Part shown: piece by piece, positions 30,253 to 64,000 of the stretch | Position numbering within the stretch: position 1 is the first letter of the stretch | Layout of the letters: each line of letters starts with the position of its first letter | Source of the DNA: Fimbriimonadaceae bacterium | GTDB taxonomy: Bacteria > Armatimonadota > UBA10988 | Direction: 5' to 3' | DNA: 64,000 nt | NCBI GenBank assembly: GCA_020850355.1 | Contig: JADZEX010000081.1 | Coordinates: forward strand, 131,113 to 195,112 | The notes under the pieces: generated by a model | The model's database searches: none | The model's input: only the letters and a program-made list of their open reading frames with translations | Told to the model about the DNA's origin: nothing | Translations under genes and position numbers: made by a program

Positions 30253-30477
30253 GGAGCCCTCCGCAGGCAGGATGCAGCAGCGGTCGGGTGGCGTCAAGGC
30301 GGGCGACGGGGGGCGCAGGCCCAACAGCAGACCCGACGAGGGCCCCAGTGAGCGCCATCCGCGCCACGGACGCAGCAGCTCCGAGCGTCCAGCTTGACGG
30401 CGCTCGCCACGACCTGCTACTCTCCAACTGCGTCGCCCAACCAGCCGAAGGGTTTGCCGAGCGGAGCCAGGCCAACA

Positions 30478-30909
30478 ATGCCAGCCAAGGAGTACCATCA
30501 GCTTCCAAGATGCCCATGCAAGAAGCTGCGGTACCGCTATGATCCTTGTGAGGGTCGAACGAAGCACAAGTGGCGTGAAGGTGCGGCGGGCTTTGCGCCT
30601 GTGGGCAAGTTCATTGTTGGCAAGTGTCCTTGCGGCATGTCCAATGCCGAGGCCGAGGCCATCCTCAACAGCGGGATGGGCGAGTATGACCCGGGTGACG
30701 AGCACCCAAAGAAGATCTACGCGGTGCATAATGGCGTTGTCTACATAGCTATGCGGAACAACGACGGCAACGCGTATCATGGCTATCCAGCAACTCGGCG
30801 TGATGTTGTCGGCAGCGCATACCGGTACGTGCTAGAAATGGCTGACCGCGACCAGTGTATGCAAGCCGCCAAAGCGTGGCTGAAGGAGCACCGCGGTGGC
30901 AACGGATAG
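30478..30909 (+). CDS. small Cys-rich hypothetical protein (2x CPC motifs; possible zinc ribbon / HNH-like core)
   Basis: 143 aa. Motifs PRCPCKK...C...GKCPCG then YAVHNGVVYIAMRNNDGNAYHGY. Low-GC codon usage. 14-nt overlap with the downstream gene. Confidence 0.55.
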   Translation: MPAKEYHQLPRCPCKKLRYRYDPCEGRTKHKWREGAAGFAPVGKFIVGKCPCGMSNAEAEAILNSGMGEYDPGDEHPKKIYAVHNGVVYIAMRNNDGNAYHGYPATRRDVVGSAYRYVLEMADRDQCMQAAKAWLKEHRGGNG

Positions 30910-38092: not shown

Positions 38093-40439
38093 CGCGCTTC
38101 TCCCCGGCCGTCCACGCGGCCAGCAGCAGAGCCACTCCGAGCAGTCCCGCGAACAGGCCGACCCGCACACTGGTCGGGGCAAAGACCCACTGCACCCGCT
38201 GGTCGGCGAACCCTCCGCCCGCGGCCAGCGCCATGTTGGGCACGAACCGGCCCTGGTCGTAGGGCGGCTGGAACGGCGCCCGAATCCAGGCCGCCGGCTG
38301 CAGCGCCGGGCTGGCCAGCGGGCCGAGGTAGACTCGCCAGCCGGGCGCTGCGCTGTCCAGCAGCAGCGAGGAGACTGGCGGCAACCGCCAGGCCGCGCGG
38401 TTCACCCCGTCGTAGAGCGTCCGCTGCACCGCCGGCCGCGGGGGTTGGCCGTCGATCACCGCAAAGCAGCGCGCCGTGGCCGCCGGTCGCGCCGACCAGA
38501 CCTCGGGCGTCCCGCTCGGCAGCGCCCCAAGCGGCCGCTCCCGGCTCAACACCTGGCTGACCGCCCCGGCCACTCGCCGCGGGTCGACGTCGCCCAGCAG
38601 CAGCATGTTGCCGTTGATGGCAGGCGCCGGCTGGCGCCCGCCGGCGGCCCACGACATCGCCTGCTTGGCCGCCGCCGGCAACAGCGAGTCGTACCCGCCC
38701 ACGTCGCGCAGCCCGGCCGCGGTGGCCAGGTTGGGCGGCAGCAACAGCCCCTCGGGCGGGTGGTAGAAGCCCCACCGCGCTGGCGGGTCGAGCGCCAGCA
38801 GGCGCGTGCCATCGCGCTCCAGGCGCTGCGCCAGCGGTGCCAGTCGGGCCGGTCGGGGATCCAGCAGAGCGCGCTCGCAGGTCGGGTTGAAACCGTACCC
38901 GAACCAGAGCAGCTCGACCGCCGCCAGCGCCACCACCAGCGCCGGCCGTCGGCGCAGCGCCAGCGCCGCCAGCAACAGGCCCAGCGCCGCGGTCAGGGCG
39001 GTCAACTGCCCGTACCAGGTGACCTCGAGCAGGGCGCCCAGCCGCGCCGCCAGGGCGGCCCGGGTCAGCAGCACCAGGCCCACCAGCACCACCCCGGCCA
39101 CCGCCCCGAGCTGCCAGCCGCGCCGCGCCGGCAGAGCGGCCAGGCGGTCGACCCCGCAACCGGCGGCGATCGCCAGGCCGAGGGTCCAGACCAGCGCCAG
39201 CCGGCACGGCCCGGCGCCCGCGCTGTAGCCAGGCAGCGCCCAGTAGAGCAGCCGGTTCGGCGGGCCGCCGAGCGCCAGCAGCAGGGCCAGCAGGGCCAGC
39301 CCCAGGTAGCCTCGCGCCGGCTGCCCACGCGCGCCGCGACCGAGCAGCAGGGCGGCCGCCAGCAGCGGCAGGAGGCCGCCGAAGAGGTTGAACTCGGTGT
39401 AGTCGCCCGGCGAAATCGCCCCGCGGCGGTCGCTGCCCCAGTACGCGCCGTCGGCCGCCTGCCGCAACAGCGCTGCGGGCGGCGCTGCGGGGTCCACCGT
39501 GCCGCGCGCCGGGTCGCCGTAGAAGCGCGGCAGCGCCAGCGTGACCAGGCGATCCAGCGGGATCGCCCGCCCCCCGAAGGCCTCGTAGCCGGCCGCCGAG
39601 CGGCCCGGCGGGCGGTGACTGCGCGGTGCCAGCTCCAGCAGCGGCAGCACCATCGGCGCGGCGACCAGGCCAGCGGTCACGGCGCAGGCCAGCCAGACGA
39701 GCACCCGCCGGCGGCCGAACCGCCAGGCGGCAACCGCCAGGGTGGTCACCGCCACGTAATGAAACACCTGCGGGTGCCCGGCCAGGCCAGCCAGCCCGAC
39801 GCAGCCGCCGGCCCAGACCGCGTGCCGCCAGCGGCCGGTGGCGCTGGCCCGCTCGACCTGCCAGAGGGCCCACGGCAGCCAGGCGGCGCTGCTGACCAGC
39901 GTTGGCAGCAGCAGCCAGGTGACGTTGAACCCGCCCAGCCCGTAGACCAGCCCCGCCAGCAGCGCGCCGGGGCGGCCCGCGCCAAGTTGTCGCGCCAGCA
40001 GCCAGGCGCCGGTCGCCGCCAGCCAGAGATGCAGCACGGCGGTCAGCCGGAAGCCGTCCGCGACGGGCAGCAGTCCGAAGCAGAGCCAGTTGGGCGGGTA
40101 CCAGAGCGCTGACTGCCCGTTGCCGCAGAAGGCGTAGCCGTTCAGTTGGTAGGGATTCCAGAGCGGCAGGCAGTTGTTGCGCAGCCCATCGGCCAGCAGC
40201 GTCCGCCACGGCCAGTACTGCCCGACCGCGTCGTACCAGAGCGCGTTCCAGGCCGTCCGCGGCGCCTGCCCAGCGGCCCACGGCGCGAACCAGCGCAGGT
40301 AGTCGGGCAGCGGCGCCCGACCCGCCACGACGGGCGCCAGCAGGAGGCCCACCGCCAGCAGCAGCAGGGCCGGACCCGCCGCTCCGGCGACCCGCCGTCG
40401 ACTGCTCCGCGGCGCGTCGGCCTGTGCGGCAGCGCTCAC
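38034..40439 (-). CDS. YfhO/GT-C-like polytopic membrane protein (putative glycosyltransferase)
   Basis: 801 aa, more than 12 TM helices, YfhO-like organisation. 3' end overlaps the downstream gene start by about 59 nt. Confidence 0.55.
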   Translation of the reverse strand: MSAAAQADAPRSSRRRVAGAAGPALLLLAVGLLLAPVVAGRAPLPDYLRWFAPWAAGQAPRTAWNALWYDAVGQYWPWRTLLADGLRNNCLPLWNPYQLNGYAFCGNGQSALWYPPNWLCFGLLPVADGFRLTAVLHLWLAATGAWLLARQLGAGRPGALLAGLVYGLGGFNVTWLLLPTLVSSAAWLPWALWQVERASATGRWRHAVWAGGCVGLAGLAGHPQVFHYVAVTTLAVAAWRFGRRRVLVWLACAVTAGLVAAPMVLPLLELAPRSHRPPGRSAAGYEAFGGRAIPLDRLVTLALPRFYGDPARGTVDPAAPPAALLRQAADGAYWGSDRRGAISPGDYTEFNLFGGLLPLLAAALLLGRGARGQPARGYLGLALLALLLALGGPPNRLLYWALPGYSAGAGPCRLALVWTLGLAIAAGCGVDRLAALPARRGWQLGAVAGVVLVGLVLLTRAALAARLGALLEVTWYGQLTALTAALGLLLAALALRRRPALVVALAAVELLWFGYGFNPTCERALLDPRPARLAPLAQRLERDGTRLLALDPPARWGFYHPPEGLLLPPNLATAAGLRDVGGYDSLLPAAAKQAMSWAAGGRQPAPAINGNMLLLGDVDPRRVAGAVSQVLSRERPLGALPSGTPEVWSARPAATARCFAVIDGQPPRPAVQRTLYDGVNRAAWRLPPVSSLLLDSAAPGWRVYLGPLASPALQPAAWIRAPFQPPYDQGRFVPNMALAAGGGFADQRVQWVFAPTSVRVGLFAGLLGVALLLAAWTAGEKRDGSLRTAADGAGPEPDSAR

Positions 40440-40448
40440 CGGCCTACC

Positions 40449-41372
40449 TCACGCCATGTGGATGGCGACGTCGTCGGCCACTTCACCCAAGAAGGTGTAG
40501 TCGGTGCCGGCGAGCTGTAGCAGCGAGCCGGGGACGTGCGCGTTGACCGGGCCGTAGGCCACCAGCCGGCCGATGAAGGCCTGCCAGGAGTCACTGCCCG
40601 GGAACGCCCCGTCCAGCCAGAAACTACGCGCCCGCGCCGCGAGAATGTCGCGCGGCCCGATGGTGTTGGCCATCGGCGCCACCCGCGACCAGTCACCGCG
40701 GAAGCTGTGCAGGGCGTTCTGCATGATGGTCATCGGGTGCAGATCCACCAACTGCGCACCCTGCGACTTCCACTCCTCGAAGTCGGGGTACTTGTCGGCG
40801 AGGTGCGGGTCCCAGAAGGCAATGTGCCCGCACCAGCCGATCCCGCCGTAGCAGACATCGGCCTCGCCGGCATCCTGCAACCGCTTGCTGTAATCGGCGA
40901 TGCGGTCCTTGGTCGGAAAGTTGATCTGGCTGGCCGGCGGCCGCAGCGCCGGGTCGAGCTTGCCGAAGAACTGCGCCATCATGGTGTACTGGAAGCTGCC
41001 CGGCCAGTCCGCCGGCGCGGTGTTGCCGTCCTGGTCGGCGTACTCGTCCATGTTGAACGAAACCAGGTGCGAGCAGTCCAGCCGCAGCTTGTTGATGATG
41101 TCGGCGGCCACCGCAAACTGTGGCACCGGGCCCACCGGGAAGATGATCACGCACTTCCGGCGCTCGTCGCGCGCCTGTTGCAGGCGGCCGATGATATCGA
41201 GCGCGAAAGCCCGGTAGAAGTCGGCCCGCTGGTCGATCACACGGATCTTGAAGTCCGGGTTGGGATGCTCCCCGGCCTCCAGCTGCGCCCGCGTGATGCT
41301 GCGCGCCTTGGCGCACGCCGCGCTGTCGCGGAACGGCAGAAACCCGGCCATCTGGGTGATGAAGTCGGACAC
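40449..41372 (-). CDS. glucosamine-6-phosphate deaminase/isomerase-like (NagB/Pgl family) protein
   Basis: GTG after GAGGAGG. Segments ...KCVIIFPVGPVPQ...SFNMDEYAD... typical of the NagB superfamily. Confidence 0.6.
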   Translation of the reverse strand: MSDFITQMAGFLPFRDSAACAKARSITRAQLEAGEHPNPDFKIRVIDQRADFYRAFALDIIGRLQQARDERRKCVIIFPVGPVPQFAVAADIINKLRLDCSHLVSFNMDEYADQDGNTAPADWPGSFQYTMMAQFFGKLDPALRPPASQINFPTKDRIADYSKRLQDAGEADVCYGGIGWCGHIAFWDPHLADKYPDFEEWKSQGAQLVDLHPMTIMQNALHSFRGDWSRVAPMANTIGPRDILAARARSFWLDGAFPGSDSWQAFIGRLVAYGPVNAHVPGSLLQLAGTDYTFLGEVADDVAIHMA

Positions 41373-41906
41373 GCGAACCTCCTCGCCACCCCGACACCAC
41401 CGCGACGGGGCCTCAACGCGGCGAGGTGTACCATGCCGCGTGGGTGGTGTCAACGGGGTGACCGCGGCCGCGCAGCCCTGGCGGGCTGCTCACCGTGGTC
41501 GCCGCAGCACCGCCGCGACCGGCGCCCCGGCCAGCTCGCCCGTTCCGGCGCCCGTTCCGCCCTCGCCGACCAGGTCATCAGCGTCGCCACGCAGGTGCCC
41601 ACCTCCCCGCCGACCTGAACCTGACACCGGTATAGACGGCGTGGTGGAGTACCTGGCCGACGCGCTCGGCCCCGGTCGTGTGCCCTACGAGACCGACTCT
41701 CCGATGCGCGATCCCCGCCCGCAGGTGGCCTGGGTCGTCTTCTGCCGGCTGCCCGCGATGGACCACGGCAACGCGCTCTGCAAGGGGCGTAGGGGGAAGG
41801 ACCGCTCCCGCCGAGCCCAACCACGGCTGCCGAACGCGCGGGCGCCGACCGGCCAGGCCGTCCTGGCACGATCCGCCTGGTCGTGATTTCGGCTTGCCTG
41901 CCCGCT

Positions 41907-45269: not shown

Positions 45270-45485
45270 TGGCCCGCCGGACACGGCGTCCGCGCCAACT
45301 GCGTCTCCCCCGGCCCGGTGTTGACCCGCCCCGAGATGGCCAACATGACCACTCGCCTCGGCCGCGCCGCCGCGCCCGACGAGATCGTCACGATGATCCC
45401 CTACCTCTGCTCCGACGACGACGCCTTCGTCACTGGCCAGAACTTCGTGATCGACGGCGGACGGAGCGTTGGGGCGATGGAGTAG
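45270..45485 (+). pseudogene. 3' fragment of a short-chain dehydrogenase/reductase (SDR) gene
   Basis: Encodes only the SDR C-terminus (GVRANCVSPGPVLTRPEM...PDEIVTMIPYLCSDDDAFVTGQNFVIDGG). The N-terminal about 190 aa including the Rossmann TGxxxGxG are absent upstream. Confidence 0.55.
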
Positions 45486-45648
45486 GACTCGCTCTCGGGT
45501 TCGGCTTCGTCCTTTGGAGGAAGGGGTCGCTTGCTGGCGAAGCAGGCGGTCGGGACTGAGCCGTCTGCGGCCGTGCGACGGGTCGGGGAGGCTGCCGCAG
45601 CCGGCGGACGTGGAGCCGCCGACTTGGCGATGGTCAGGGATTGGGGAT

Positions 45649-47067
45649 ATGAGGACAGTCAAGCTCAAGGACCAGGGCGTCGGCCTACCCGAGACTCTGA
45701 AGGTGCTCGACGACCCGCGAGTTGGCGGCGAAGCCGAGGTGTTCTTCACCGCCGATGAGCGTTACGCAGTCAAGGCTTACACCAAGCCCGCCGCCGACCG
45801 CGAGCAGTCGCTACGGCAGGTTCGCAAACTCTTTGGCGACCTGTCGCACGAACAGGCGGAGTTCATCGTGCCGCCGCTGGCCCTGCTCCAGAGCATTGAC
45901 GGTCAGCCGCGCGTCGGGTTTGTGATGCGCCGAGTCCCGCCCAGCTACCAGAACCTCAGTGCGGTGATGCACAGCCCAACCGAGGCCGCATCCCAGTTCA
46001 GGAAACACCGTTCATGGGCCGACTACCTGCGTCTGGCACGCAACGTCGCCTCCTGCCTCAGCGTGCTGCACTGCAAGGGCTGTTCGCACGGGGACATCCA
46101 CCCACGCAACTTCATGGTGGACCTGCCACAGGGCAAAGCCGTGATGCTGGAGGTCGATGGCGTCATCGTACCGGGCTTCCTGAAGCCCCAGGTCGACGGA
46201 ATGCGCGGCTACATGGCCCCGGAAGTAGTCCGTGGTGAGGCGCAGCCGTCGAAGCAGACTGACCTTCACAGCCTGGCGGTGCTGCTGCTGCACACCCTGT
46301 TGTTTCGGAATGTGATGAACCCGCTGGTTGAGTTCTCGACCGACGCTGAAGAGAGCGAGCGGCTCGGCTGGGGCCGCGAGGCGGTCTTCAGCGAGCATCC
46401 CCAGATCCGCACTAACCGCCCGCGCCACCTTGGGACACCGCTGTACCGAAAAGGCGCGCTGAGCTGCCGGGCCCTGGGGCCACGGTTGGAGAAGTTGGCG
46501 CATCGGGCGTTGGTTGAGGGCCTGCACGATCCAGCCAGCCGGCCCCAGGCCGACGAGTGGGTGGAAGCGCTGACTGCGGCCCGCGATGAGCTCTACTACT
46601 GCGCAGTGTGCCATCAGCAGCCAATCTACCCGTACTGGGAACAGCCCCTTGCGCGCCGCTCCTGTGCATTCTGCGGCAATCGTCTGCAGGGGGCGCCAGC
46701 GGTTCTGGAGTTGTACGAGGAGCGGCAGCGGGGTTCCTTCCACCCAATCGGCCGGCCGGTCGTGCTTGCGGCGGGGTTCAAGGTGTTCCCGGACCTCGCC
46801 AACCGCCGCGGTCCCTTGCGCTGGGAGCCGCGTAGCGACCAGCAGCCGGTAGCCGAGTGTCGTGCCAGGCCAGGCTCGGCCGAGCTGGAACTGGTCAATC
46901 GGAGCACCACCGAGTGGGCGGTGCGCCGGACAGATGGCTCGCGCGGCGAGGCCGTCAAGCCGGGCCAGGCGGTGCCGCTGGCTTCGGGTCTCGGAGTGCA
47001 GTTGGGCCCAGACGGGCGCTTGCTGTGGGTGCAGGAAGCGCCCACTCCGACCGTGCAGAGGAGGTAG
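45649..47067 (+). CDS. atypical Ser/Thr protein kinase with C-terminal zinc ribbon and beta-rich domain (TerY-P-type kinase)
   Basis: ATG start. Kinase motifs ERYAVKAY (beta3 Lys), HGDIHPRNFMVD (catalytic loop), GYMAPE. Then CAVCHQQ...CAFCGN zinc ribbon. Confidence 0.75.
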   Translation: MRTVKLKDQGVGLPETLKVLDDPRVGGEAEVFFTADERYAVKAYTKPAADREQSLRQVRKLFGDLSHEQAEFIVPPLALLQSIDGQPRVGFVMRRVPPSYQNLSAVMHSPTEAASQFRKHRSWADYLRLARNVASCLSVLHCKGCSHGDIHPRNFMVDLPQGKAVMLEVDGVIVPGFLKPQVDGMRGYMAPEVVRGEAQPSKQTDLHSLAVLLLHTLLFRNVMNPLVEFSTDAEESERLGWGREAVFSEHPQIRTNRPRHLGTPLYRKGALSCRALGPRLEKLAHRALVEGLHDPASRPQADEWVEALTAARDELYYCAVCHQQPIYPYWEQPLARRSCAFCGNRLQGAPAVLELYEERQRGSFHPIGRPVVLAAGFKVFPDLANRRGPLRWEPRSDQQPVAECRARPGSAELELVNRSTTEWAVRRTDGSRGEAVKPGQAVPLASGLGVQLGPDGRLLWVQEAPTPTVQRR

Positions 47068-47071
47068 GCTC

Positions 47072-47761
47072 GTGTCTGACTTTGACATTCAGGTGGCGGT
47101 GGGTGAGGGTGTCCGGCGTCTGCCGGTCTATCTGTTGCTGGACTGCAGCGGCAGCATGCAGGGCGCGCCGATCGAGGCGGTGCGCCACGGCGTTGAGCTG
47201 TTCGCCCGCGAGGTGCTGGGCGATGAGTTCGCCGCTCAGACCGTGCATGTCGCGGTGATCCTGTTCGGTGGCGAGGCTCGCATGGTTACCAGTGGATTGG
47301 TGCCCATGGACCAGTTCCAGCCACCTGCGCTGGAAGCTCGCGGCGGCACTCCGCTGGGCGGGGCCCTGCGCCTGCTTAACGAGTCCCTGACCCGCGACCT
47401 GCGTCCCAACGTGCCGGGGCAGCCGAAGGGCGACTGGAAGCCGATGGCCTTCATCATGACCGACGGCGCCGCGACGGACGACTGGCGCGGGCCCCGCGAG
47501 GCCATCATCAACCGGCAGACGGGCCGTCTGCTGAACATCTGCACGGTCGGTTGCGGCCCCGGTGTCGATGAAGCGTTACTCAAGGAGATTGCCGTCGGAC
47601 CGGCCTTCAAGATGGATGACAGCGAGGTCTCGTTCAAGCAGTTCTTCCAGTGGGTCACCGCCAGTGTGCGGGCCGTCAGCGTGTCGCTGAGCCAGCCCAG
47701 CGGGCCGGGCGGCCCGGTCGACCTGCCGCAGCCGCCGCCCGTGTTGCAGTACATCGACTGA
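47072..47761 (+). CDS. vWA domain protein (TerY-like)
   Basis: GTG start 4 nt after the kinase stop. MIDAS motif LLLDCSGSM...TPLGGAL...FIMTDGAATD. Confidence 0.8.
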   Translation: MSDFDIQVAVGEGVRRLPVYLLLDCSGSMQGAPIEAVRHGVELFAREVLGDEFAAQTVHVAVILFGGEARMVTSGLVPMDQFQPPALEARGGTPLGGALRLLNESLTRDLRPNVPGQPKGDWKPMAFIMTDGAATDDWRGPREAIINRQTGRLLNICTVGCGPGVDEALLKEIAVGPAFKMDDSEVSFKQFFQWVTASVRAVSVSLSQPSGPGGPVDLPQPPPVLQYID

Positions 47762-47784
47762 GGCCGCTGCCCGCGGAGGTGACC

Positions 47785-48813
47785 ATGGAAGCGCGCTGGG
47801 TGGAGGGTGACACGCTGTTGGCCAGTGCCGGCAGCCGGCACCCGGATCAGGTCTGGCTGCACCAGGCCCACGGGCCGTGGCAGATCCTCGGAGCCAGCGC
47901 CGTTGGGCAGGCCCATCGTCGTGACGACACCCCGCGCGACGATGCGCTCTGCGCTGGTGGCGCCGGGCCGTGGTTGGTGGCCGCCGTCGCGGACGGCGCT
48001 GGCTCGGCGGCCCTGTCGCGGTTCGGGGCCACCACCGCCGTGCGGACCGCCGTCGAAGTGCTACTCGACAGTCTGCCCATGCCGCCGGGCGACGAGAACC
48101 AGGTCGCCGGGCTGCCCGACTGCCTGACCGTGGCTCGCCAGCGTAACGTCCGCTATGACGCCGACCAGCCGACCGAGGTGTTACGGGCGACCTTCCAGCA
48201 GGTCCACCGGCAGGTTGGCCGGGCGGCCGAAGCCATGCAGGCGCCAGCGTCCAAGCTGCACTGCACGCTGCTGGTGGCGGCCCTGCAAGTCGAGAGTGGG
48301 CAACTGCTGGTGGGACAGGTCGGTGACGGCGCGATCGTCTACCATGACCCGGCCAATGGCGGCGGACGCCTGCTCCTACAACCTCCGAGTAGTAGCCAGG
48401 CTGGCGAGACCTACTTCATCACGCAGCCCGATTGGCCCGCGCGGTTCGACGCGCAGGCCATCGAGGCGGTTGCTGCGGGCGGGATCCTCCTGCTCACCGA
48501 TGGCATCGCCGACGATGTCACCTGTCCGCCGCCCGATGATGTGCTGACCCGGTTCAGCGGCCAGATGACCGCCCAGTTGCTGCGCCCGCTACCGCCCGCG
48601 GAGCGGGCGGCTGCCCTGCTGCGATGGGTGGACGGCTACCGCGCCTCGGGTTCGTTCGACGACCGAACCATGCTGGCACTGCTCCGCGCGGCCCCACCTG
48701 TGCCGTTCCCAGCGCTTGTAGATGGCGCGCAAGCGGATCCCGGTGCGGAATCAGCGCCACAGCCGACTTGCGATCAGCCAGCGGACGACCAGCAACGGGA
48801 TGGGGTTGACTGA
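47785..48813 (+). CDS. PP2C-family protein serine/threonine phosphatase
   Basis: Motifs AVADGAGS, VGDGAI and LLTDGIADD spaced as in bacterial PP2C (SpoIIE/PPM) phosphatases. Confidence 0.75.
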   Translation: MEARWVEGDTLLASAGSRHPDQVWLHQAHGPWQILGASAVGQAHRRDDTPRDDALCAGGAGPWLVAAVADGAGSAALSRFGATTAVRTAVEVLLDSLPMPPGDENQVAGLPDCLTVARQRNVRYDADQPTEVLRATFQQVHRQVGRAAEAMQAPASKLHCTLLVAALQVESGQLLVGQVGDGAIVYHDPANGGGRLLLQPPSSSQAGETYFITQPDWPARFDAQAIEAVAAGGILLLTDGIADDVTCPPPDDVLTRFSGQMTAQLLRPLPPAERAAALLRWVDGYRASGSFDDRTMLALLRAAPPVPFPALVDGAQADPGAESAPQPTCDQPADDQQRDGVD

Positions 48814-48816
48814 GCT

Positions 48817-51462
48817 ATGGCGACGTCGCCGTTGACGCCAGAGCAGGCCGCCGCGCTCTCTTCAGCGCTCGCCTGGCTAGCTGAGAACTCGGTCGGCAGC
48901 ACCGAGTTGACGGTCGACAGGGCCGAGATCGGACTGCTGGCGCAAGGCCTGGATCCCGAACCGACGCTGATTCAGGAGATGCAGCGCTGTTTCAGTCTGC
49001 TGCGGCGGGCGGCCGGATCTGCTGATCCGGACCTCCACCAGATGGTGCAACGGGCGCTGCAGGACCGGGGCGCCTCTGAGGCTGCCGCCTTGCTGGCAGT
49101 GGACCGAGTGGCCGCACATCCTTCGCCGCCGGCAGCCACTGCGGCGACGGCGCAACCCGCCGGATTGCAGTGTGCGCCCATCACGGTGGACCGCCCGGCG
49201 ATCGTCTGGGCGGCGCTCGCTCCCAAGACCGGCGCGGAACACCAGCTCCGAGTCAGCGGAGGCCCGGGCCAGGTGGTTGCCTTTCCGGAGGACCGGATCG
49301 CAGTGGCGCCGGTGGAGTTTGGGCCCCAGCCGACGACGCTCACGGTCATGCTGACCGGCGGCCTGCCAGGCGAACTGCTGTGGGGGCACCTCTCGCTGAC
49401 AAGTCGTCAGGAAGAGGTCCAGGTTGAGATCTCCGCTCATTGGCCAGCCCCTCGCCTCTCGCCGAGCAGCCCGTCGGAGCACAACGAGGAGCGACCCTCG
49501 GCGTCGCCGCTGCGGGTGGCCAAGGAGGAGCGTCGGCGAAAGGCCCGACAGCAAGACGACGCGCCGGCCGAGCCCGCAACTCCCGCCACCGGTTACCCGC
49601 CCGACGGCCCCGCACCGCCCGGCTGGCCGTCTTACATCCCCTGGCCGCCGGCCCGGCTGCCGGAGCTGCGGTTCCGGGTCTGTGAGATCGACGCCATGCC
49701 GCAGGTGCTGATCCCGGCCGGGGAGTTCCTGATGGGAAGCCCAGCGAGCGAGGCAGGGCGGTTCGACGACGAAGGGCCGCAGAAGCGCGTGTACCTGAAC
49801 GGGTACTGGCTGGACCTGCACGCGGTGACGAACAGGCAATACGCGCAGTTCGCCGAGGCGACACGGCGGACCAATGCAGAGTGGGAGCAGTGGAACCACG
49901 ACACCTACCGGCGGCATCCAGCTACTTACGCGAGTTGGGAGGAGGCGACGGCGTATGCGGCGTGGGCGGGGCGGGAGCTGCCGACGGAAGCACAGTGGGA
50001 AAGAGGGGGGCGGGGCGGCACGACTACCGCGTACCCGTGGGGGAAGCGGGGGGAACTTGGGCGAGCGAATGGGGACTGGGACGCAGACCGTGTCAGCTCG
50101 CACGCAAACGCAGTGAAGTACTGTCAGGAGGTTGGCCAGCACCCCCCGAACGGTTTCGGGCTCTACGACATGATCGGCAACGTATGGGAGTGGTGCCGCG
50201 ATTGCTACGATGCCGGCTGGTACTCCAAGATGCCCAGGGCCGAGCCACAGAATGCCGCGAACGACGGCTCTCGCGTGTACCGGGGTGGCTCTTGGGGCAG
50301 CGGACCGCGGTACCTGAGGGTGGCGGGCCGCTTCAGAAACTCGCCGGACTTCCGGGGCAGCAACCTGGGCTTCCGCTGCGCCGCGCCCGGACCTCCCGGA
50401 GCCCCAGCCAGCGCGCCATCGCCCGTGTCAGTGGCGGCGGTCCTGTTCCCGAAGGCGCGAACGGCCCCAAGCTCGGCAGCGACGCCGCCTGGCCCGGCCA
50501 AGGCGGCATCGGGCCCCTCCGCTGCGGCAACACCGCAGCCGTCGCCGACGCCAGCCAGAGTGGTCGCACCACAGCCAGCGCCTTCCACGCCGCCGCCGCA
50601 GCCGCCGGTCGCGCTGACCGAGGGCCACCCCGACGGCCCGGCACCGCCCGGCTGGCCGTCTTACATCCCCTGGCCGCCCGCACGGCTGCCGGAGCTGCGG
50701 TTCCGGGTCTGTGAGATCGACGCCATGCCGCAGGTGCGGATCCCGGCGGGGGAGTTCCTCATGGGGAGCCCGGAGAGCGAGGCGGGGCGGGTCAGCAACG
50801 AGGGCCCGCCTCAGCGGGTTCACTTGAGCGCGTACTGGCTCGACCTGCACGAGGTTACGAACGAACAGTGGCGTCGGTTCCTGACGGCAAGCCGCCGCAG
50901 CAGCATGTGGGGGCGCCTATCGGCGCTGTGGCGAACCAACACCCAGTGGGCACAGTGGGACCAGGATACAGGGCCTCGGCACCCGGCGGTCTTCATCAAC
51001 TGGGAGGAGGCCAGAGCGTATGCGCTGTGGGCCGGTCGGGAGCTGCCGACGGAGGCGCAATGGGAGATGGCGGCGAGAGCTGGAACGACAACCACCTACC
51101 CCTGGGGAGAACAGCCTAGCTGTGGTCGGGCAAACGGGAACTGGGAAGGTGATCGAAGCTACTCGTACCAGAGCGCGGTGACGCACTGCTCGTGGGTGGG
51201 AGCATATGACCCGAACGGGTTTGGAGTCTATGATGCGATTGGCAATGTGTGGGAGTGGTGCCGGGACTCCTATGGTGACAAATGGTCCCGCCAGTTGGCG
51301 CCGGCGGATAGCTTCATTGCAGTACCGAGCGGTGAGCGCGTAATACGCGGGGGCTCGTGGATCAGCTCCGGCGGTCACCTGCGAGTGGCGGATCGTCTCG
51401 GGATTGCACCAGCCGGTCGGTTCGGTCATCTCGGCTTCCGCTGCGCATCGCCGGCGCGTTGA
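48817..51462 (+). CDS. protein with N-terminal unknown domain and two tandem FGE-sulfatase (SUMF1/formylglycine-generating-enzyme-like) domains
   Basis: Each repeat has IPAGEFLMGSP...WEWC...RGGSW...LGFRCA hallmark motifs. ATG overlaps the PP2C stop region (4-nt spacer). Confidence 0.75.
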   Translation: MATSPLTPEQAAALSSALAWLAENSVGSTELTVDRAEIGLLAQGLDPEPTLIQEMQRCFSLLRRAAGSADPDLHQMVQRALQDRGASEAAALLAVDRVAAHPSPPAATAATAQPAGLQCAPITVDRPAIVWAALAPKTGAEHQLRVSGGPGQVVAFPEDRIAVAPVEFGPQPTTLTVMLTGGLPGELLWGHLSLTSRQEEVQVEISAHWPAPRLSPSSPSEHNEERPSASPLRVAKEERRRKARQQDDAPAEPATPATGYPPDGPAPPGWPSYIPWPPARLPELRFRVCEIDAMPQVLIPAGEFLMGSPASEAGRFDDEGPQKRVYLNGYWLDLHAVTNRQYAQFAEATRRTNAEWEQWNHDTYRRHPATYASWEEATAYAAWAGRELPTEAQWERGGRGGTTTAYPWGKRGELGRANGDWDADRVSSHANAVKYCQEVGQHPPNGFGLYDMIGNVWEWCRDCYDAGWYSKMPRAEPQNAANDGSRVYRGGSWGSGPRYLRVAGRFRNSPDFRGSNLGFRCAAPGPPGAPASAPSPVSVAAVLFPKARTAPSSAATPPGPAKAASGPSAAATPQPSPTPARVVAPQPAPSTPPPQPPVALTEGHPDGPAPPGWPSYIPWPPARLPELRFRVCEIDAMPQVRIPAGEFLMGSPESEAGRVSNEGPPQRVHLSAYWLDLHEVTNEQWRRFLTASRRSSMWGRLSALWRTNTQWAQWDQDTGPRHPAVFINWEEARAYALWAGRELPTEAQWEMAARAGTTTTYPWGEQPSCGRANGNWEGDRSYSYQSAVTHCSWVGAYDPNGFGVYDAIGNVWEWCRDSYGDKWSRQLAPADSFIAVPSGERVIRGGSWISSGGHLRVADRLGIAPAGRFGHLGFRCASPAR
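49601..49761 (+). repeat. intragenic direct repeat copy 1 (about 160 bp, about 93% identical to copy 2)
   Basis: ccgacggccccgcaccgcccggctggccgtcttacatcccctggccgcc...gagatcgacgccatgccgcaggtg recurs at 50630. Confidence 0.85.
50630..50790 (+). repeat. intragenic direct repeat copy 2
   Basis: Same linker + start of FGE domain (DGPAPPGWPSYIPWPPARLPELRFRVCEIDAMPQV). Nucleotide identity far higher than the rest of the two FGE domains. Confidence 0.85.
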
Positions 51463-52711: not shown

Positions 52712-53734
52712 TCAGGGGGTGGGCGGGCCCAAGCGGCGGTCGAACGCGGCCAGGAAGGCGGCGACGGCCGGTGCGGCGAGATCGGTGAGGCGGATCAGCC
52801 GCAGGCTGCTGGCGGGGTGGGCGGCGAGGTGAGCCAGCGCGGCCTGGACCAGGATGGTGGCAGACTGCTCCAGCGGGAACCCGCCGCGGCCGGCACCGAG
52901 GGCGGGCAGCGACAGCGAGTCGAAGCCCTCGCGCGCGGCGCGGTCGAGCGCCGCGCCGGCGACGGCGGCGAGGGCGGCAGGTGCCGTCGGTTGGCCGCCC
53001 TGCCAGACCGGCCCGACGACGTGGATCACCGCGCGGCAGGGCAGCGCGCCGGCGCCGGTCAGAGCCACCTCGCCGGCGGCCAGCGGGCCGTGCTGGCGCA
53101 TCCAGGCGTCGCTCTCCTGCTGCACCACGGCGCCCCCGCGCCGCACGATGGCGCCGGCGACGCCCCCGCCGTGGGCCAGCCGGGCGTTGGCGGCGTTGAC
53201 GATGGCGGCGGTGGTCTCGCTGGTCAGATCGCCGTGGGCGACCTCCAGCCGCCGGCCGTCGGGCAGCGTGACGCGGCGCCGCAGGGTGGCCTGGAGGCTC
53301 TCCCAGGGGGCCAGCCCCAGATGCACCGCCAGCCGCTGCCGGCAGCCAGCCGGGTCGGCCGTCAGGTCGGCCTCCCACAGCTCCAGCAGCCGCCAGCCCC
53401 AGCGCGTCGCGAGGCGCTGCAGGGCGGCGTCCTGGACCCGTTTGCGGCGCTGGCTGTGGTTCAGGCGGTCGGGCGGGCAGGTCGCCGGGTCGCCATGGTA
53501 CCAGGTGCCCTGGACCTCGATCCAGAGCCGCGCCGCGGGCACTGCGAAGTCGACCGCCAGGGTCGGCGTCAGGGGATACTGCGCCACCGCGACGATGTCC
53601 AGCTCGGCCAGCCAGCCGGCGACGGTGCGCTCGGGCGCGGTGTCGCGCCACGGCGCGGCCGGTCGTGGCGGCGGCGTTCGTTGGCGTAAGCGGCGTTGCA
53701 GGTCGCGCAGACTGTCGTGCGGGCGGCGGATCAC
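52712..53734 (-). CDS. DUF559 (Vsr-like endonuclease fold) - Macro domain fusion protein
   Basis: GTG after GGGAGG. N-terminal DUF559-like region (AVDFAVPAARLWIEVQGTWYHG...QRRKRVQDAALQRLATRWGWRLLELWEADL). C-terminal Macro signature IVNAANARLAHGGGVAGAI...GEVALTGAGALPCRAVIHVVGP. Confidence 0.7.
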   Translation of the reverse strand: MIRRPHDSLRDLQRRLRQRTPPPRPAAPWRDTAPERTVAGWLAELDIVAVAQYPLTPTLAVDFAVPAARLWIEVQGTWYHGDPATCPPDRLNHSQRRKRVQDAALQRLATRWGWRLLELWEADLTADPAGCRQRLAVHLGLAPWESLQATLRRRVTLPDGRRLEVAHGDLTSETTAAIVNAANARLAHGGGVAGAIVRRGGAVVQQESDAWMRQHGPLAAGEVALTGAGALPCRAVIHVVGPVWQGGQPTAPAALAAVAGAALDRAAREGFDSLSLPALGAGRGGFPLEQSATILVQAALAHLAAHPASSLRLIRLTDLAAPAVAAFLAAFDRRLGPPTP

Positions 53735-56103
53735 CAGGTTCCTCCCGCCCGCAAGAAGGCCAGTTGCCGGGCGGTTGCCCCGAGTGCGGCGGCGGTCAGG
53801 GGCAGCGCCAGCAGCAGCAGCAGGCCGTTGGCCCAGAGCATCCCGGTGGGCGGCCCGACGGCCTGCGGGAGGGCCTGCGACCAGAGGATCCGTAGCAGCT
53901 CGAGCGTGGCGATGGCCGCCAGGCCCTGGCCGCGCCACTCGCGCCGGACCGTGCCGGCCAGCGTCAGCGCGGGCAGCAGCAAGATCACCGCGAGCCAGTG
54001 ACAGAGCCCCGCGGTGGTGACCCAGGGCTGCCCGACCCAGTGGCCGGCGAGCGCCACGGGGAGGGCGGTCAGCAGCCAGAAGAAGCCGAACGGCAGCGTC
54101 ACGCCGAGGTAGCGCGAGAGCACGATCTGGCGCACCGAGAGCGGTGTCAGCCACCAGGCGTCGAGCCGTCCGGCGGCATGGTCGCGGGCGAAGCAGCGGA
54201 CGCCGGCGAGGCCGGCCGGGTGGAGCAGCAACTGCAGCCCGATCGCGGCCATCGCCATCGACGGCAGCGCCGCGGCCGGGTCGCCAGCGGGGAGGTAGTT
54301 GCGGTGCCACAGGAACAGCGAAATGGCGTCTCGCAGGGAGGCCTCGACCATCGGCCCGAGGCGGAAGTAGAAGGCCCCCAGGACCGGCCCCAGGAGCATC
54401 GCGAACGGCGACAGCAGCCAACCGCGGCGGTGCAGCAGCAGCAGGTCGAGGTGCAGCACCGGCGTGCTGACCGGCGCCGGCCGCGCGGCTCGGGCGCGGC
54501 GCAGGCCTGGGCGCAGGCCGCGTTGCAGCACGACCGCCGCCAGCGCCCCAATCGTCAGGGCCACGGCGAGCTGCACCGCAACCGCCTGTGGCCACGGCCC
54601 GGGCAACGGCAGATCGCTGGTGTTGCCGAGGCCGGTGCCGGCGTCAGGGGGTAGCCAGAGCGCCACCGAGAAGGGCGAGCAGGCGCTCACGGCAGTGCCC
54701 AGCGGGTGCTTCCACTGCCCCAGAAAGGGACCGGCCAGGGCGGGCAAGACCAGCGCCAGACTGAGCAGCTCGCGTCGCGTGGTGCGCCAGGCGGCGGTCA
54801 CCAGCAGGCCCAGCAGGTAGGCCCCCGCGGCGGCCACGACGGCCACCCAGACGGCCGCCGCGCGGCCCAGGAACGGCCCTCCCGCCGCGCTCAGCGGCCA
54901 GCCGCCGAGCTGCAGGCAGAGGGCGGTGACCAGCCACGGCAGGAGCCCGGCCCAGGCGACCGCGCGCCAGTAGGGCCAGAGCGCCGCGGCCGTGGGCAGC
55001 CGCTCGTCGCCGTCGGTGGTGCCGCTGCGCAGCCCGCAGCGGAGCGCGGCAGCGTAGCCGGCAAAGACCACTTGCGGCAGCGCGGCCCAGAGCAGCAGCG
55101 TCAGCAGCAACTGCGCGGCCGTCTGCCGGTCGGCGCTGAGGTCCCACCACAACGGCAGCGCGAAGCGGGCCAGGCCGTGCTCCCAGGTGAAGCCGACCAG
55201 CAGCAGCGCGGCGCTGACGTACGTCGCCTGGCTGCCGCGAACGACGAGCTGGGCGAGCGCTGGCGTCTCGCCGTAGATGGTGGTCGCCAGCCCGGCCAAC
55301 TGGCGCCGCGCCCAGGGCACGGCCGGCAGCGCCAACAGCAGATAGGGCAGGCGCAGGCCGAACCACGGACCAACGCCGCCGCAGAGCAGGCCCAACTGCT
55401 GGCCGCTGCGGAAGGTCAGCAGCACCGCCAGGAAGATCCACAGCGGGTTGAGGAAGGCCGCCGTGAGGGTCCGGACGTTGAAGATCAGGTCCGACCAGTC
55501 CTCGAGGCTGGCGTGCCGGGTGCGCACCGCCGCGGCGCCCGCGGCGGCGCTCAGCAGCAACGCATAGAGGGCCACGCCAGCCAGCACGACGGCCACGCCG
55601 CCCAGCGCCGGGGCCGGCGGACCGGGCAGCAGGCGCAGCGCCAGGTAGACCGGCAGGCCGCACAGGATCATCCGCAGACCGGCCCCGGCCGCCGGTAGGG
55701 CCCGCCCGGAGAGGGCCTCCAACGGCCGCAGGCGGGTCAGCGCCAGCGCGGTGGCGTTGCCCTCGTGTTGCAGATCGGCCGACAGGCGCCAGGCCGGCAG
55801 GCCCGTGGCGACCGCGACCAGCAGCGCGTGGAGGGCCACGATGGGGTTCCAGATAGTCATCCCAAAGGGCCATCCGGCGAGCGCGTCGCGGCTGGCGAAG
55901 CGCTGCCAAACGAGCGCCGCGAGCACCACGAAGGCGGCCGCCGGGACCCAGCCAGCCGCGTCCCCGCGCCGCCGCAGCCGGCGGGCCTCGAGTTGCAGAA
56001 ACAGATTGTCGACGACCCACCACGCGGCGCGGGCCGGCGGTGCGGGCGGCGCTGCAACCGTACACATCGCCGCCATGATACCCGCTGCCGCGGCGGCTGA
56101 CAC
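53731..56103 (-). CDS. large polytopic membrane protein of unknown function
   Basis: 790 aa, about 20 predicted TM helices. GTGA overlap with the DUF559-Macro gene. 18 nt downstream of the sensor kinase gene. Confidence 0.55.
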   Translation of the reverse strand: MSAAAAAGIMAAMCTVAAPPAPPARAAWWVVDNLFLQLEARRLRRRGDAAGWVPAAAFVVLAALVWQRFASRDALAGWPFGMTIWNPIVALHALLVAVATGLPAWRLSADLQHEGNATALALTRLRPLEALSGRALPAAGAGLRMILCGLPVYLALRLLPGPPAPALGGVAVVLAGVALYALLLSAAAGAAAVRTRHASLEDWSDLIFNVRTLTAAFLNPLWIFLAVLLTFRSGQQLGLLCGGVGPWFGLRLPYLLLALPAVPWARRQLAGLATTIYGETPALAQLVVRGSQATYVSAALLLVGFTWEHGLARFALPLWWDLSADRQTAAQLLLTLLLWAALPQVVFAGYAAALRCGLRSGTTDGDERLPTAAALWPYWRAVAWAGLLPWLVTALCLQLGGWPLSAAGGPFLGRAAAVWVAVVAAAGAYLLGLLVTAAWRTTRRELLSLALVLPALAGPFLGQWKHPLGTAVSACSPFSVALWLPPDAGTGLGNTSDLPLPGPWPQAVAVQLAVALTIGALAAVVLQRGLRPGLRRARAARPAPVSTPVLHLDLLLLHRRGWLLSPFAMLLGPVLGAFYFRLGPMVEASLRDAISLFLWHRNYLPAGDPAAALPSMAMAAIGLQLLLHPAGLAGVRCFARDHAAGRLDAWWLTPLSVRQIVLSRYLGVTLPFGFFWLLTALPVALAGHWVGQPWVTTAGLCHWLAVILLLPALTLAGTVRREWRGQGLAAIATLELLRILWSQALPQAVGPPTGMLWANGLLLLLALPLTAAALGATARQLAFLRAGGTW

Positions 56104-62257: not shown

Positions 62258-63799
62258 CTAGCGGTACTCGACCGTCACGTTGCCAGCGCGGAGCAGGCCG
62301 TGGGGCCAGTCGGCGTCGCTGGTCAGGCGCCGGCCGTTGATGATGACGTTTTCCAGGATGATCCGAATCGATCCGTCGCCCTCGGTCCGCAGCCGGGAAC
62401 GCAGCGGGGTGCCCTGCAGGTCGGCGACGTGCGGGCCCCACCAGGTGCCGCGTTCGGTACCGCTGAGGCTGACGTTGCGAAAGTGCAGCTCGACCGGTCG
62501 CAGCTTCACCTCGCCGGCCGGTCGGGTGGCCCAGGGGGTGGGGCGGTCCCAGTTGTCGATCGCCAGGAAGTTCAGCACGTCGCCCCAGACCTGCAAGTTC
62601 TCGATTTGGCAGTTGGTGAACTGCGTCCCCGTCGAGGCGGCCAGTCCGAACAGGCCGCGGGCCATGTTCTGCACCGTGGCGGTGTCGCGGACGACCCAGT
62701 TGTCGGCGAAGACATGGTCCTTGGTGGTGTAGGAGTAACCGTAGCCGAGCTGCACCAGCGCGGAGTTGTCCTGCTTCCAGATCACGCAGCGGCGGGTCTC
62801 GGAGGTCGGCGCCATCCAGCAGAAGACGTCGTCTTCGACCTTCAGGAAGCAGTCCAGGATTCGGTGGTGGGGTCCGGCGATGATGCCGTTGTTGTTGTAC
62901 AGGTCGCCGAGCAGCTTGAGATTCTGGAAGACCGCCCCGGACCCGTGGGTGCGGATCATGTAGAACGGCGACTCGATCACGGTGAGGCCTTCGAGGCGGA
63001 GATCCGTGGTCGTCGGGTCGGCGTAGATGGTCGCCCACTTGGCAGCGTACATGCGGTCGTGGTTGGGCTCCCAGGGGTTGGCCTGGCCGGCGGCCTTCGC
63101 GGCCAGCGCCGACTCCACGCGTTGCAGCATCAGCCGGCGGTCGGTCAGGATACCGCGGCCGCGGAGCCGGATCTGCGGGCCCTCGCAGTAGAGCGAGCCC
63201 TGGACCAGCGCGCCGCCTGCCAGGTAGACCGTCTGCCCCGCGCTGACGCGGTGCTGGAAGCCGATGTCGTGGACACCCGGCCCGTAGTACTGCACCCCGG
63301 GTGTGCCCGGCGCGGGGACATCGGTTTCGGGCGGGTTGGCGAACAGGAAGAAGGGGTGCTCGAAGTCGAACCGCTCGTGGCCGGCGACTTTCACCAGCAC
63401 GTAGTACTGCCCCGGCCGGCTGAGCTCCAGGCGGACCTTGCCATCGACGACGCTGGCGGCGATGCCGGTCGGGGCGGGCCGGAGCTCGACCCCCACGGCG
63501 CGGGCCTGCAAGGCCTCCAGCTCGACGGTCACCTGGCCGGCGAACGAGAAGCTCGCCCAGTGATTCTCGCGGGGGAAGAACTGCGCCGGCCACGGCCCGG
63601 GGAACTCGTGGTGCCAGATCGACCGCATCCGGTAGCAGAACGCCTCCTGCGCAGTTTCGCCCTGGGTCACCCGGACCCGGTACTGCGCCGAGCGGTACTC
63701 CTCCTGGCCCGGCGCCGGGTAGACCCAGAGCCCGGCGGCTGGGGGCTCCGCCGCGCTGGCGGCGGTCAGGACTGTGGTCAGCAGGATCACCCGTCGCAT
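62258..63799 (-). CDS. secreted right-handed beta-helix (pectate-lyase/GH28-GH49-like) protein
   Basis: Signal peptide MRRVILLTTVLTAASAA. Repeated parallel beta-helix coil motifs (NNGIIAGP..., NCQIENLQVWG...). Start +/-1 codon uncertain. Confidence 0.55.
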   Translation of the reverse strand: MRRVILLTTVLTAASAAEPPAAGLWVYPAPGQEEYRSAQYRVRVTQGETAQEAFCYRMRSIWHHEFPGPWPAQFFPRENHWASFSFAGQVTVELEALQARAVGVELRPAPTGIAASVVDGKVRLELSRPGQYYVLVKVAGHERFDFEHPFFLFANPPETDVPAPGTPGVQYYGPGVHDIGFQHRVSAGQTVYLAGGALVQGSLYCEGPQIRLRGRGILTDRRLMLQRVESALAAKAAGQANPWEPNHDRMYAAKWATIYADPTTTDLRLEGLTVIESPFYMIRTHGSGAVFQNLKLLGDLYNNNGIIAGPHHRILDCFLKVEDDVFCWMAPTSETRRCVIWKQDNSALVQLGYGYSYTTKDHVFADNWVVRDTATVQNMARGLFGLAASTGTQFTNCQIENLQVWGDVLNFLAIDNWDRPTPWATRPAGEVKLRPVELHFRNVSLSGTERGTWWGPHVADLQGTPLRSRLRTEGDGSIRIILENVIINGRRLTSDADWPHGLLRAGNVTVEYR

Positions 63800-64000
63800 C
63801 AGCGCTGCTCCGCAGGCCGGCCAACCGCCCATTGCGCTGCCTGCCAGGGATTCCTGCCGGGCGGAACCAGCCAAGAGCCGGGCCTGTCTGACGGTCGGGA
63901 GATCGCGGTGGTGCCCTGGATCGGAGTGCTGGCCCTGGTGACCCTGGCCGGCGGCGAGACACCCGCAGCGGCGGCCTTCACGCCCACCAGCCGTTACCAG

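Follow-up and report, generated by a model that had tools for sequence, protein, structure and literature searches.

The ADP-ribosylation of DNA and RNA has been recognised only recently, with DarT, pierisin-like toxins, Tpt1 and PARPs among the examples. Cells are known to answer such marks either with hydrolases that reverse them directly or with generic pathways of excision and recombination repair (PMC7003065). We describe here a gene that joins a nuclease domain of the EDxHD/Vsr type to a Macro domain, which is an ADP-ribose-binding module. The gene lies on the minus strand of a 64,000-nucleotide stretch of contig JADZEX010000081.1 (positions 131,113 to 195,112, assembly GCA_020850355.1, Fimbriimonadaceae bacterium), and this whole stretch is referred to below as the window. 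Both domains are well known; their combination is one that we have not found described, and it is rare and restricted to one clade.

For the nuclease half, the closest described enzymes are the homing endonuclease I-Bth0305I (PDB 3r3p; PMC3239194) and the very-short-patch repair endonuclease Vsr of E. coli (1cw0/1vsr; PF03852). I-Bth0305I gives the best fold match and shares the E-D-x-H-D residue set, and it too is devoid of a zinc site (PMC3239194). In contrast to the EDxHD homing endonucleases, the fusion protein contains no NUMOD or helix-turn-helix region, its nuclease is N-terminal where theirs is C-terminal, and it carries a Macro domain; furthermore, its gene is chromosomal and vertically inherited and does not reside in an intron, intein or phage. 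With Vsr it shares the fold, the equivalents of D51, H69, D97 and E25 and the aromatic pair F67/W68, but it lacks the zinc ligands, has Gln in place of H64, has no partner cytosine methyltransferase and stays below the cutoff of the Vsr Pfam family. The families DUF559 (PF04480) and REase_MTES_1575 (PF18741) belong to the same superfamily, and the window protein reaches the cutoff of neither.

The best matches of the Macro half are macrodomain 1 (MD1) of PARP9 and PARP14 and the coronavirus macrodomain Mac1. All share the NAAN motif, and the first glycine-rich loop reads GGGVAGA as in Mac1, where both PARPs have GGL. The fusion protein differs from PARP9 and PARP14 in being bacterial and joined to a nuclease, and in its loop 2, which contains GAGRGG as opposed to SSGVFG in PARP14 and SSGIFQ in PARP9. 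DarG is comparable in that a Macro domain takes part in the biology of DNA ADP-ribosylation. In overall plan there is also a likeness to the Type IV modification-dependent restriction endonucleases (PMC6765204), which combine a domain reading a small adduct with a nuclease of the PD-(D/E)XK type. In the fusion, however, the putative reader is a Macro domain for ADP-ribose, which we did not find described for Type IV enzymes in the searched literature, and the gene is not part of a defence island. Finally, the TM-macro protein ThsA of Thoeris invites comparison, but none of the loci with the fusion carries a TIR gene, and the membrane protein found beside it is a separate, ABC-2-like polypeptide of about 780 residues.

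A nuclease and a Macro domain in one reading frame

The fusion is a real but rare bacterial gene, and its two-domain architecture is confirmed. It comprises 340 codons plus stop in one uninterrupted open reading frame (ORF; Table 1), and its GTG start at 53734 shares the sequence GTGA with the TGA stop of the upstream gene. The fraction of G or C at third codon positions (GC3) is 0.93 for the whole gene, 0.92 for the N-terminal half and 0.94 for the C-terminal half, but just 0.54 in the in-frame extension upstream of the GTG, so that both the start and the reading as a single gene are sound; the G+C content of the window is about 72%. The possibility of two separate genes is ruled out by the continuous ORF, the high GC3 throughout and the equal lengths of the orthologues. 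An NCBI protein, P0001, is identical over all 340 residues and is named 'MAG: macro domain-containing protein [Fimbriimonadaceae bacterium]' (MAG, metagenome-assembled genome); its contig measures 217 kb. In an AlphaFold model, the full-length protein reaches a pLDDT of 87.7 and a pTM of 0.70, and a proline-rich stretch (residues 20-31) behind the N-terminal helix is disordered (pLDDT <50). The L..L.RRL motif of this helix is common to the fused orthologues and to the standalone nuclease P0122. Scans for promoters and terminators found nothing informative between the fusion gene and the membrane protein gene upstream of it. A preliminary description made from the sequence of the window had proposed a single 340-residue protein of two domains, and its coordinates, continuous ORF and both domains hold.

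From its profile matches, predicted fold and conserved residues, the N-terminal domain is most precisely labelled a nuclease domain of the EDxHD/Vsr type, zinc-less and complete in its active site. In Pfam, the window protein taken alone matches REase_MTES_1575 with 20.8-24.6 bits, below the cutoff of 38.2, and it has no match to DUF559 (cutoff 20.6 bits) and none to Vsr at E <= 1. With a profile built from six orthologues, the E-values are 8e-7 for E. coli Vsr (1cw0) and 1.8e-5 for the I-Bth0305I catalytic domain (3r3p). Scanned singly, these orthologues hit REase_MTES_1575 in all six cases (the top Pfam match each time; best E 3.8e-7) and Vsr and DUF559 in four cases each (best E 4.4e-4 and 0.0016, respectively), always below cutoff. 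Four relatives of the nuclease, P0126, P0129, P0134 and P0136, exceed the DUF559 cutoff. When the domain was modelled alone (AlphaFold, pLDDT 90.9), the closest folds were 3r3p (Foldseek E 1.2e-5, TM 0.62-0.77) and 1cw0 (TMq 0.79), followed by a DUF559-like protein from Neisseria. The DUF559-type assignment made in the preliminary description is therefore right at the level of the superfamily, where orthologue profiles and fold agree with it, but not as strict Pfam membership, as the window protein itself gave no DUF559 match. The Vsr-like restriction-endonuclease fold that it had also proposed is borne out by 3r3p and 1cw0 as best matches in both fold and profile. In the Pfam scan that it had put forward as a check, the Macro domain lies above cutoff, but DUF559 and Vsr are not reached by the window protein alone.

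The active site was mapped by hidden Markov model (HMM) alignment together with published residue assignments (PMC3239194). E35 corresponds to Vsr E25, D62 to D51, the essential metal ligand, H80 to H69 and D102 to D97. E73 occupies the position of Vsr F62 and supplies the additional acidic side chain that characterises EDxHD enzymes, Q75 stands in the place of Vsr H64 (Asn208 in I-Bth0305I), and W78/Y79 are the counterparts of F67/W68, the aromatic pair that intercalates into DNA as a wedge. Across 12 fused and standalone relatives, E35, D62, E73, H80 and D102 are invariant, while position 75 varies between Q, H and D. The zinc ligands of Vsr (its site consists of Cys66, His71, Cys73 and Cys117) are not kept in the HMM alignment, with T77 replacing C66 and D82 replacing H71. 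The domain accordingly shows what defines the EDxHD family, namely a composite E-D-x-H-D site on a zinc-less Vsr fold, with an acidic residue in the place of Vsr F62. No NUMOD or helix-turn-helix DNA-binding region is appended to it, and just a short basic helix precedes it. The domain would be expected to nick DNA with Mg2+.

The C-terminal domain matches the Pfam family Macro (PF01661) over residues 179-294 with an E-value of 6.4e-32 (110.4 bits, cutoff 22). D169, the adenine-contacting Asp of a GDLT motif, aligns with PARP14, PARP9 and OiMacroD, as do NAAN (180-183) and GGGV (189-192), so that the canonical NAAN…GGGV signature noted earlier is indeed present. The first glycine-rich loop is GGGVAGAI and has the form of Mac1, not that of MacroD1, which carries Asp and His. 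By sequence, the nearest solved proteins are macrodomains 1 and 2 of PARP14 (8e-32) and macrodomain 1 of PARP9 (5e-29), and bacterial MacroD-type proteins and YmdB come next. The Macro half of the AlphaFold model superimposes on PARP9 MD1 with an rmsd of 1.8 Å at 36% identity.

Loop 2 of this domain is unusual. It reads PAISSGIFGFP in about 40 relatives, PAISSGVFGFP in PARP14 and PALSSGIFQFP in PARP9, but the window protein has G282-R283-G284 in place of the G-[IV]-[FY] motif. GIF or GIY is found in six of the eight full-length fused orthologues and in at least 90% of the standalone relatives. A frameshift or assembly artefact as the cause is ruled out, because the codons have been substituted in frame, ATC by CGC and TTC by GGC. 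At 11-12 of about 70 strongly conserved columns the window Macro deviates, the most of any member; fused proteins depart from the standalone consensus at 3-11 positions, as compared to a mean of 1.4 among standalone proteins.

A second fused copy, at 8334-9344 of locus L015 (loci and proteins related to the window carry L and P numbers), has a Macro domain that has degraded independently, with GGGV changed to GSGL and GIF to GAD and the nuclease site intact. As in the window copy, SS is changed to GA just ahead of loop 2. P0002, the closest relative of the L015 protein (68% identical), retains the canonical Macro motifs.

PARP14 MD1, PARP9 MD1 and Mac1 act as erasers of ADP-ribose on glutamate and on 5'- or 3'-phosphorylated single-stranded DNA and RNA (PMC10499325), and mutation of the Phe of the GIF motif in Mac1 causes defects in binding and/or hydrolysis (PMC10802294). 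Given the loss of the GIF loop, efficient de-ADP-ribosylation by the window protein is unlikely, and its Macro domain is probably a poor eraser and at best a reader. This casts doubt, for the window copy, on the earlier suggestion that the Macro domain reverses ADP-ribosylation. The preliminary description had made its proposal depend on the key binding residues of the Macro domain, without naming them; D169, NAAN and GGGV are kept, but the Ile-Phe pair of loop 2 is lost.

Table 1. Features of the fusion gene and its surroundings. Positions are those of the window, except in the last two rows, where they are those of the locus named.
Feature	Position	Strand	Basis or remark
Whole gene, 340-residue Vsr-like nuclease and Macro fusion	52712..53734	-	ORF and translation; GTG start, TGA stop
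GGGAGG ribosome-binding site (Shine-Dalgarno)	53741..53746	-	6 nt upstream of GTG, inside the end of the upstream gene
N-terminal Arg-rich helix, residues 1-19 (L..L.RRL)	53678..53734	-	helix predicted for residues 7-18
EDxHD/Vsr-type (DUF559-superfamily) nuclease domain, residues 30-140	53315..53647	-	profile, fold, conserved catalytic residues
Interdomain linker, residues 141-158	53261..53314	-	fast-evolving; mean pairwise identity 0.30
MacroD-type Macro domain, residues 159-335	52730..53260	-	Pfam; PDB sequence and fold matches
Degenerate Macro loop 2	52874..52906	-	PALGAGRGGFP against PAISSGIFGFP in the family; GIF to GRG
Polytopic membrane protein, 790 residues, upstream	53731..56103	-	translationally coupled to the fusion gene
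Cassette: Ser/Thr kinase-like protein, vWA, PP2C, 881-residue protein with two FGE-sulfatase (FGS) domains	45469-51462	+	four co-directional genes
Macro-RNase T pair, locus L007	5001-6187		translationally coupled
Macro-RNase T pair, locus L037	1634-2838		translationally coupled

Distribution, selection and genomic surroundings

The fusion is known from about nine lineages that are mutually less than 70% identical, with identities down to about 45%. These are the window (P0001), L001 (P0002), L015/L016, L002/L021 (P0003), L003/L004 (P0004, 'uncultured Fimbriimonadaceae'), L013 (P0005), L005 (P0006, 'Armatimonadetes bacterium'), L020 and the truncated protein P0121. The G+C content is about 72-73% in every fused locus measured, and the three with organism names are Armatimonadota; the phyletic survey that the preliminary description had called for thus points to a set of Armatimonadota-like lineages. 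Among phage and plasmid records there is none with both domains, the viral predicted structures gave no match to the pair, and no published account of a nuclease-Macro fusion was found in the searched literature, in agreement with the earlier remark that no characterisation of it was known. The gene is chromosomal and vertically inherited in Fimbriimonadaceae-like Armatimonadota.

An exhaustive HMMER search against 1.84 billion representative proteins (E <= 1e-3) returned 7232 relatives of the nuclease domain, and among the best 147 of these not one carries a Macro domain. The best matches are standalone proteins of 120-180 residues, proteins of 200-400 residues in which the nuclease is C-terminal and follows a helix-turn-helix, NUMOD3 or zinc-ribbon module, and inteins. 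Low-GC contigs with an IECQGTY[FY]H motif encode classic homing-endonuclease architectures. The nearest relatives, P0122 and P0123, are small standalone chromosomal proteins and not NUMOD-bearing homing endonucleases.

Both domains are under purifying selection. In the L002-L021 pair, the sole one whose synonymous distance is unsaturated (dS about 0.11-0.14), the ratio of nonsynonymous to synonymous substitution (dN/dS) comes to 0.17 in the nuclease and 0.12 in the Macro domain. Across the fused proteins, pairwise identity averages 0.60 in the Macro domain, 0.51 in the nuclease and 0.30 in the linker. The Macro loops have decayed in the window and in L015 while the nuclease site is constant throughout, which suggests that the protein cannot do without its nuclease activity and that the Macro domain is an accessory with shifted requirements. 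In a neighbour-joining tree of fused and standalone Macro domains, the fused copies form no well-supported clade (bootstrap 19/100).

Several observations on the relatives deserve mention. At 5869-6957 of L005 (contig JACRKZ010000010.1), the DNA encodes a full fusion, but the NCBI protein P0071 (191 residues) begins at an internal Met and covers the Macro half only, so its gene call is probably truncated. The gene of P0122, the nearest standalone nuclease, lies tail-to-tail with uvrB at a distance of 8 bp (3409-3963 and 3972-5960 of L017; also L018), in different samples. A small homologue of the nuclease domain also occurs in 17 records of Mycobacterium phages, where it adjoins or overlaps an annotated DNA methyltransferase gene in a Dcm-Vsr-like manner (hits H1-H18, e.g. 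NC_023552.1 39122-39415). Several fused copies have the standalone Macro proteins P0007 and P0008 among their nearest relatives; the genes of these two share 4 nt with the gene downstream, which codes for an RNase T-family (DEDD) exonuclease (Table 1), so that Macro and nuclease are paired there in another way. Another standalone Macro of the same family is part of an operon for IF3, L35, L20, Macro and a SpoU methyltransferase (L011/L012, 3682-6352), a translation or RNA context.

The one recurring companion of the fusion is the membrane protein encoded upstream of it. In six of nine loci (the window, L001, L002, L021, L003 and L015), a version of about 780 residues, with 43-47% identity, overlaps the fusion gene or lies directly next to it, and it is absent beside the fusion in L005, L013 and L020, so that it is a recurrent neighbour, frequent but not obligatory. 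It has about 16-18 hydrophobic segments and reaches no family cutoff; ABC2_membrane_4 is matched weakly in three of four orthologues (best E 4e-5). No ATPase gene is adjacent to it, and its homologues occur, among the matches listed, only beside the fusion.

On the other side of the fusion gene, and separated from it by a convergent Gfo/Idh/MocA gene, stands a cassette of four genes (Table 1) with a GC3 of about 0.8, lower than that of the neighbouring genes. Triads of kinase, PP2C and vWA as well as FGS domains occur in predicted conflict systems (PMC7159879), and the preliminary description had taken the adjoining candidate defence cassette as a hint to the role of the fusion. This did not survive comparison, because none of the related loci whose flanks were read contains the cassette, and it is not conserved beside the gene; membership of the fusion in it is rejected. 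Instead, the related loci show synteny with TsaE/TsaB/RimI, glycosyltransferase, redoxin, ferredoxin, PrmC and Sua5 genes, and the window encodes TsaB, MreC, SmpB, RuvB, RuvC, ProRS, PrfA and glycoside hydrolases. No DNA methylase domain was found in the window or the related loci. The fusion loci are syntenic housekeeping chromosome and not defence islands, and nothing in them is evidence of a defence gene.

Elsewhere in the window, three long minus-strand ORFs that bear strong signs of coding (38037-40448, 40452-41489 and 62261-64000; GC3 0.90-0.91) have no Pfam match, and the G+C content dips to 0.63 at 30001-32000, behind a gene with an amidase domain, as compared to about 0.72 elsewhere. 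Scans of the window for tRNA genes and Rfam families gave no matches.

Possible roles of the fusion protein

As the best reading of these data, we tentatively propose an ADP-ribose-directed or ADP-ribose-gated nickase acting in the repair or processing of nucleic acids, and we regard this as a possible rather than a probable explanation. The protein would be a cytoplasmic enzyme of two domains, of which the N-terminal one would be a catalytically intact zinc-less Vsr/EDxHD nickase. In this nuclease family, targeting is often supplied by a separate module, and the Macro domain is the sole module added here, so that ADP-ribose probably selects the substrate or gates its cleavage. The substrate may be a nucleic acid in which ADP-ribose modifies a base or caps a phosphorylated end. 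Where the Macro site is intact, an orthologue might also remove the mark, while the Macro domain of the window copy would more likely read it, in a weakened or altered way, than erase it efficiently. The nucleic-acid substrate, the dependence on ADP-ribose and this division of labour between the domains are what we infer from the architecture.

In favour of such a nickase are the complete active site of the nuclease, the purifying selection on both domains, the DNA-binding partners seen in relatives of the nuclease, the action of this Macro class on phosphorylated DNA and RNA, and the syntenic housekeeping surroundings. In addition, related standalone Macro proteins (P0007 and P0008) are coupled to an RNase T-family exonuclease, and the Macro domain is the more dispensable half, its loops having degraded independently in the window and in L015 with the nuclease sites intact. 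Vertical inheritance and the usual co-translation with the membrane protein furthermore point to a lineage-specific function in repair or processing and not to a mobile defence gene. Other observations weigh against the proposal. No ADP-ribosyltransferase (DarT, Tpt1, PARP-like, SIR2 or TIR) is present in the window or the related loci, and the loss of the GIF motif makes it uncertain that the window protein recognises ADP-ribose at all. The model also assigns no part to the membrane protein that accompanies the fusion in six of nine loci. Removal of base-linked ADP-ribose is not known for domains of the MacroD type. As for the earlier idea of a role in nucleic-acid ADP-ribosylation conflict or repair, the link to nucleic-acid ADP-ribosylation remains plausible from the domain combination alone, but the notion of a conflict finds neither a writer enzyme nor a defence context. 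A bolder version, in which the Macro domain reads the modification and steers the Vsr-type nickase to ADP-ribosylated DNA or RNA, either to initiate excision repair or for a Type IV-like restriction, perhaps paired with the membrane protein, would make this the first ADP-ribose-reading nuclease; we consider it doubtful.

Alternatively, the protein might be a ligand-gated effector of defence or abortive infection. Its Macro domain would sense a free NAD-derived signal (ADP-ribose (ADPR), IAD, O-acetyl-ADP-ribose (OAADPR) or a related nucleotide) and activate the nuclease, and the membrane protein would be a sensor or second effector, comparable to the TM-macro ThsA. In Thoeris, the Macro domain of ThsA is the signal receptor, binds ADPR or IAD and drives the effector (PMC11204291). 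Effectors of the restriction-endonuclease fold are common and co-occur with Macro and NADAR domains in predicted ADP-ribose-centred immune neighbourhoods (PMC9503650). The membrane gene overlapping the fusion in six of nine loci would suit this scenario, and the relaxed catalytic loops of the Macro domain in two lineages fit a receptor better than an enzyme. We nevertheless consider an effector unlikely, as there is no TIR, SIR2 or other signal-generating gene at any locus, and PADLOC reported nothing significant (no match to Thoeris, 15 bits for DarG and 14 bits for a model of homing endonucleases). Moreover, the loci are syntenic housekeeping regions (TsaB/TsaE, RimI, PrmC, Sua5, PrfA) and not variable islands, the fusion is confined to a single clade in which its divergence matches that of its neighbours, it is absent from phage and plasmid records, and the membrane partner is missing in three lineages. 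The decay of the Macro half in two lineages, the window among them, also bears on another proposal, that of a housekeeping hydrolase of ADP-ribose derivatives (O-acetyl-ADP-ribose, ADP-ribose-1''-phosphate or protein mono-ADP-ribose) like YmdB or MacroD, possibly in RNA metabolism, in which the nuclease-derived domain would serve as a tether to nucleic acid or to a partner. A tether would have no need of catalytic residues that are invariant and under purifying selection, and we hold this proposal to be improbable, even though there is a large family of standalone Macro proteins of about 190 residues with the JGI name O-acetyl-ADP-ribose deacetylase (regulator of RNase III), members of it are found in translation or RNA operons (IF3-L35-L20-Macro-SpoU and Macro-RNase T), and the Macro domain is slightly better conserved than the nuclease (mean identity 0.60 vs 0.51).

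One might also ask whether the fusion is an accident, i.e., whether a selfish free-standing gene of the homing-endonuclease type landed upstream of a Macro gene and was fused to it without any joint function. Homing endonucleases from introns, inteins and phage-like contigs prevail in the wider nuclease family, and the low bootstrap of the fused Macros (19/100) would be compatible with such an origin. An accident is hard to reconcile, however, with about nine lineages reaching down to about 45% identity with an intact frame, both sets of active-site residues conserved in most of them and dN/dS values of 0.12-0.17; in addition, the closest nuclease relatives (P0122/P0123) are standalone chromosomal proteins free of NUMOD, and the fusion has no homing-endonuclease DNA-binding module. 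We deem it quite improbable. Still less credence is due to the canonical functions of the two halves, that is, Vsr repair of T:G mismatches arising from deamination of 5-methylcytosine or a DarG-type reversal of thymidine ADP-ribosylation in DNA, which the membership tests largely exclude. Profile and predicted fold do match E. coli Vsr, mycobacteriophage homologues of the nuclease adjoin DNA methyltransferases, and the Macro domains include DarG. Yet T and D stand where Vsr has its zinc ligands C66 and H71, respectively, the Vsr family stays below its Pfam cutoff, and no cytosine methyltransferase is encoded in the window or the related loci. The analogy to DarG drawn in the preliminary description fails likewise, and a DarG-like antitoxin is rejected: DarG models score far under cutoff (13.6 bits against 250 for NCBIfam, 15 bits in PADLOC), there is no DarT in the window and no toxin-antitoxin arrangement, and the Macro domain is of the MacroD or PARP14-MD1 type.

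A possible lead for ADP-ribose biology in Armatimonadota

We regard the nuclease-Macro fusion as a genuine and testable lead rather than as a demonstrated system. If the proposal of an ADP-ribose-directed nickase is true, a nuclease joined to an ADP-ribose-binding module would represent a third type of response to nucleic-acid ADP-ribosylation, a cleavage directed by the mark. It would also be a small protein, amenable to experiment, with which to find out whether nucleic-acid modifications can be read by Macro domains. Should the fusion instead turn out to be only a lineage-specific curiosity, its value would be modest and would lie in the correct domain architecture for a poorly studied phylum and in the correction of a gene model in one MAG or more.

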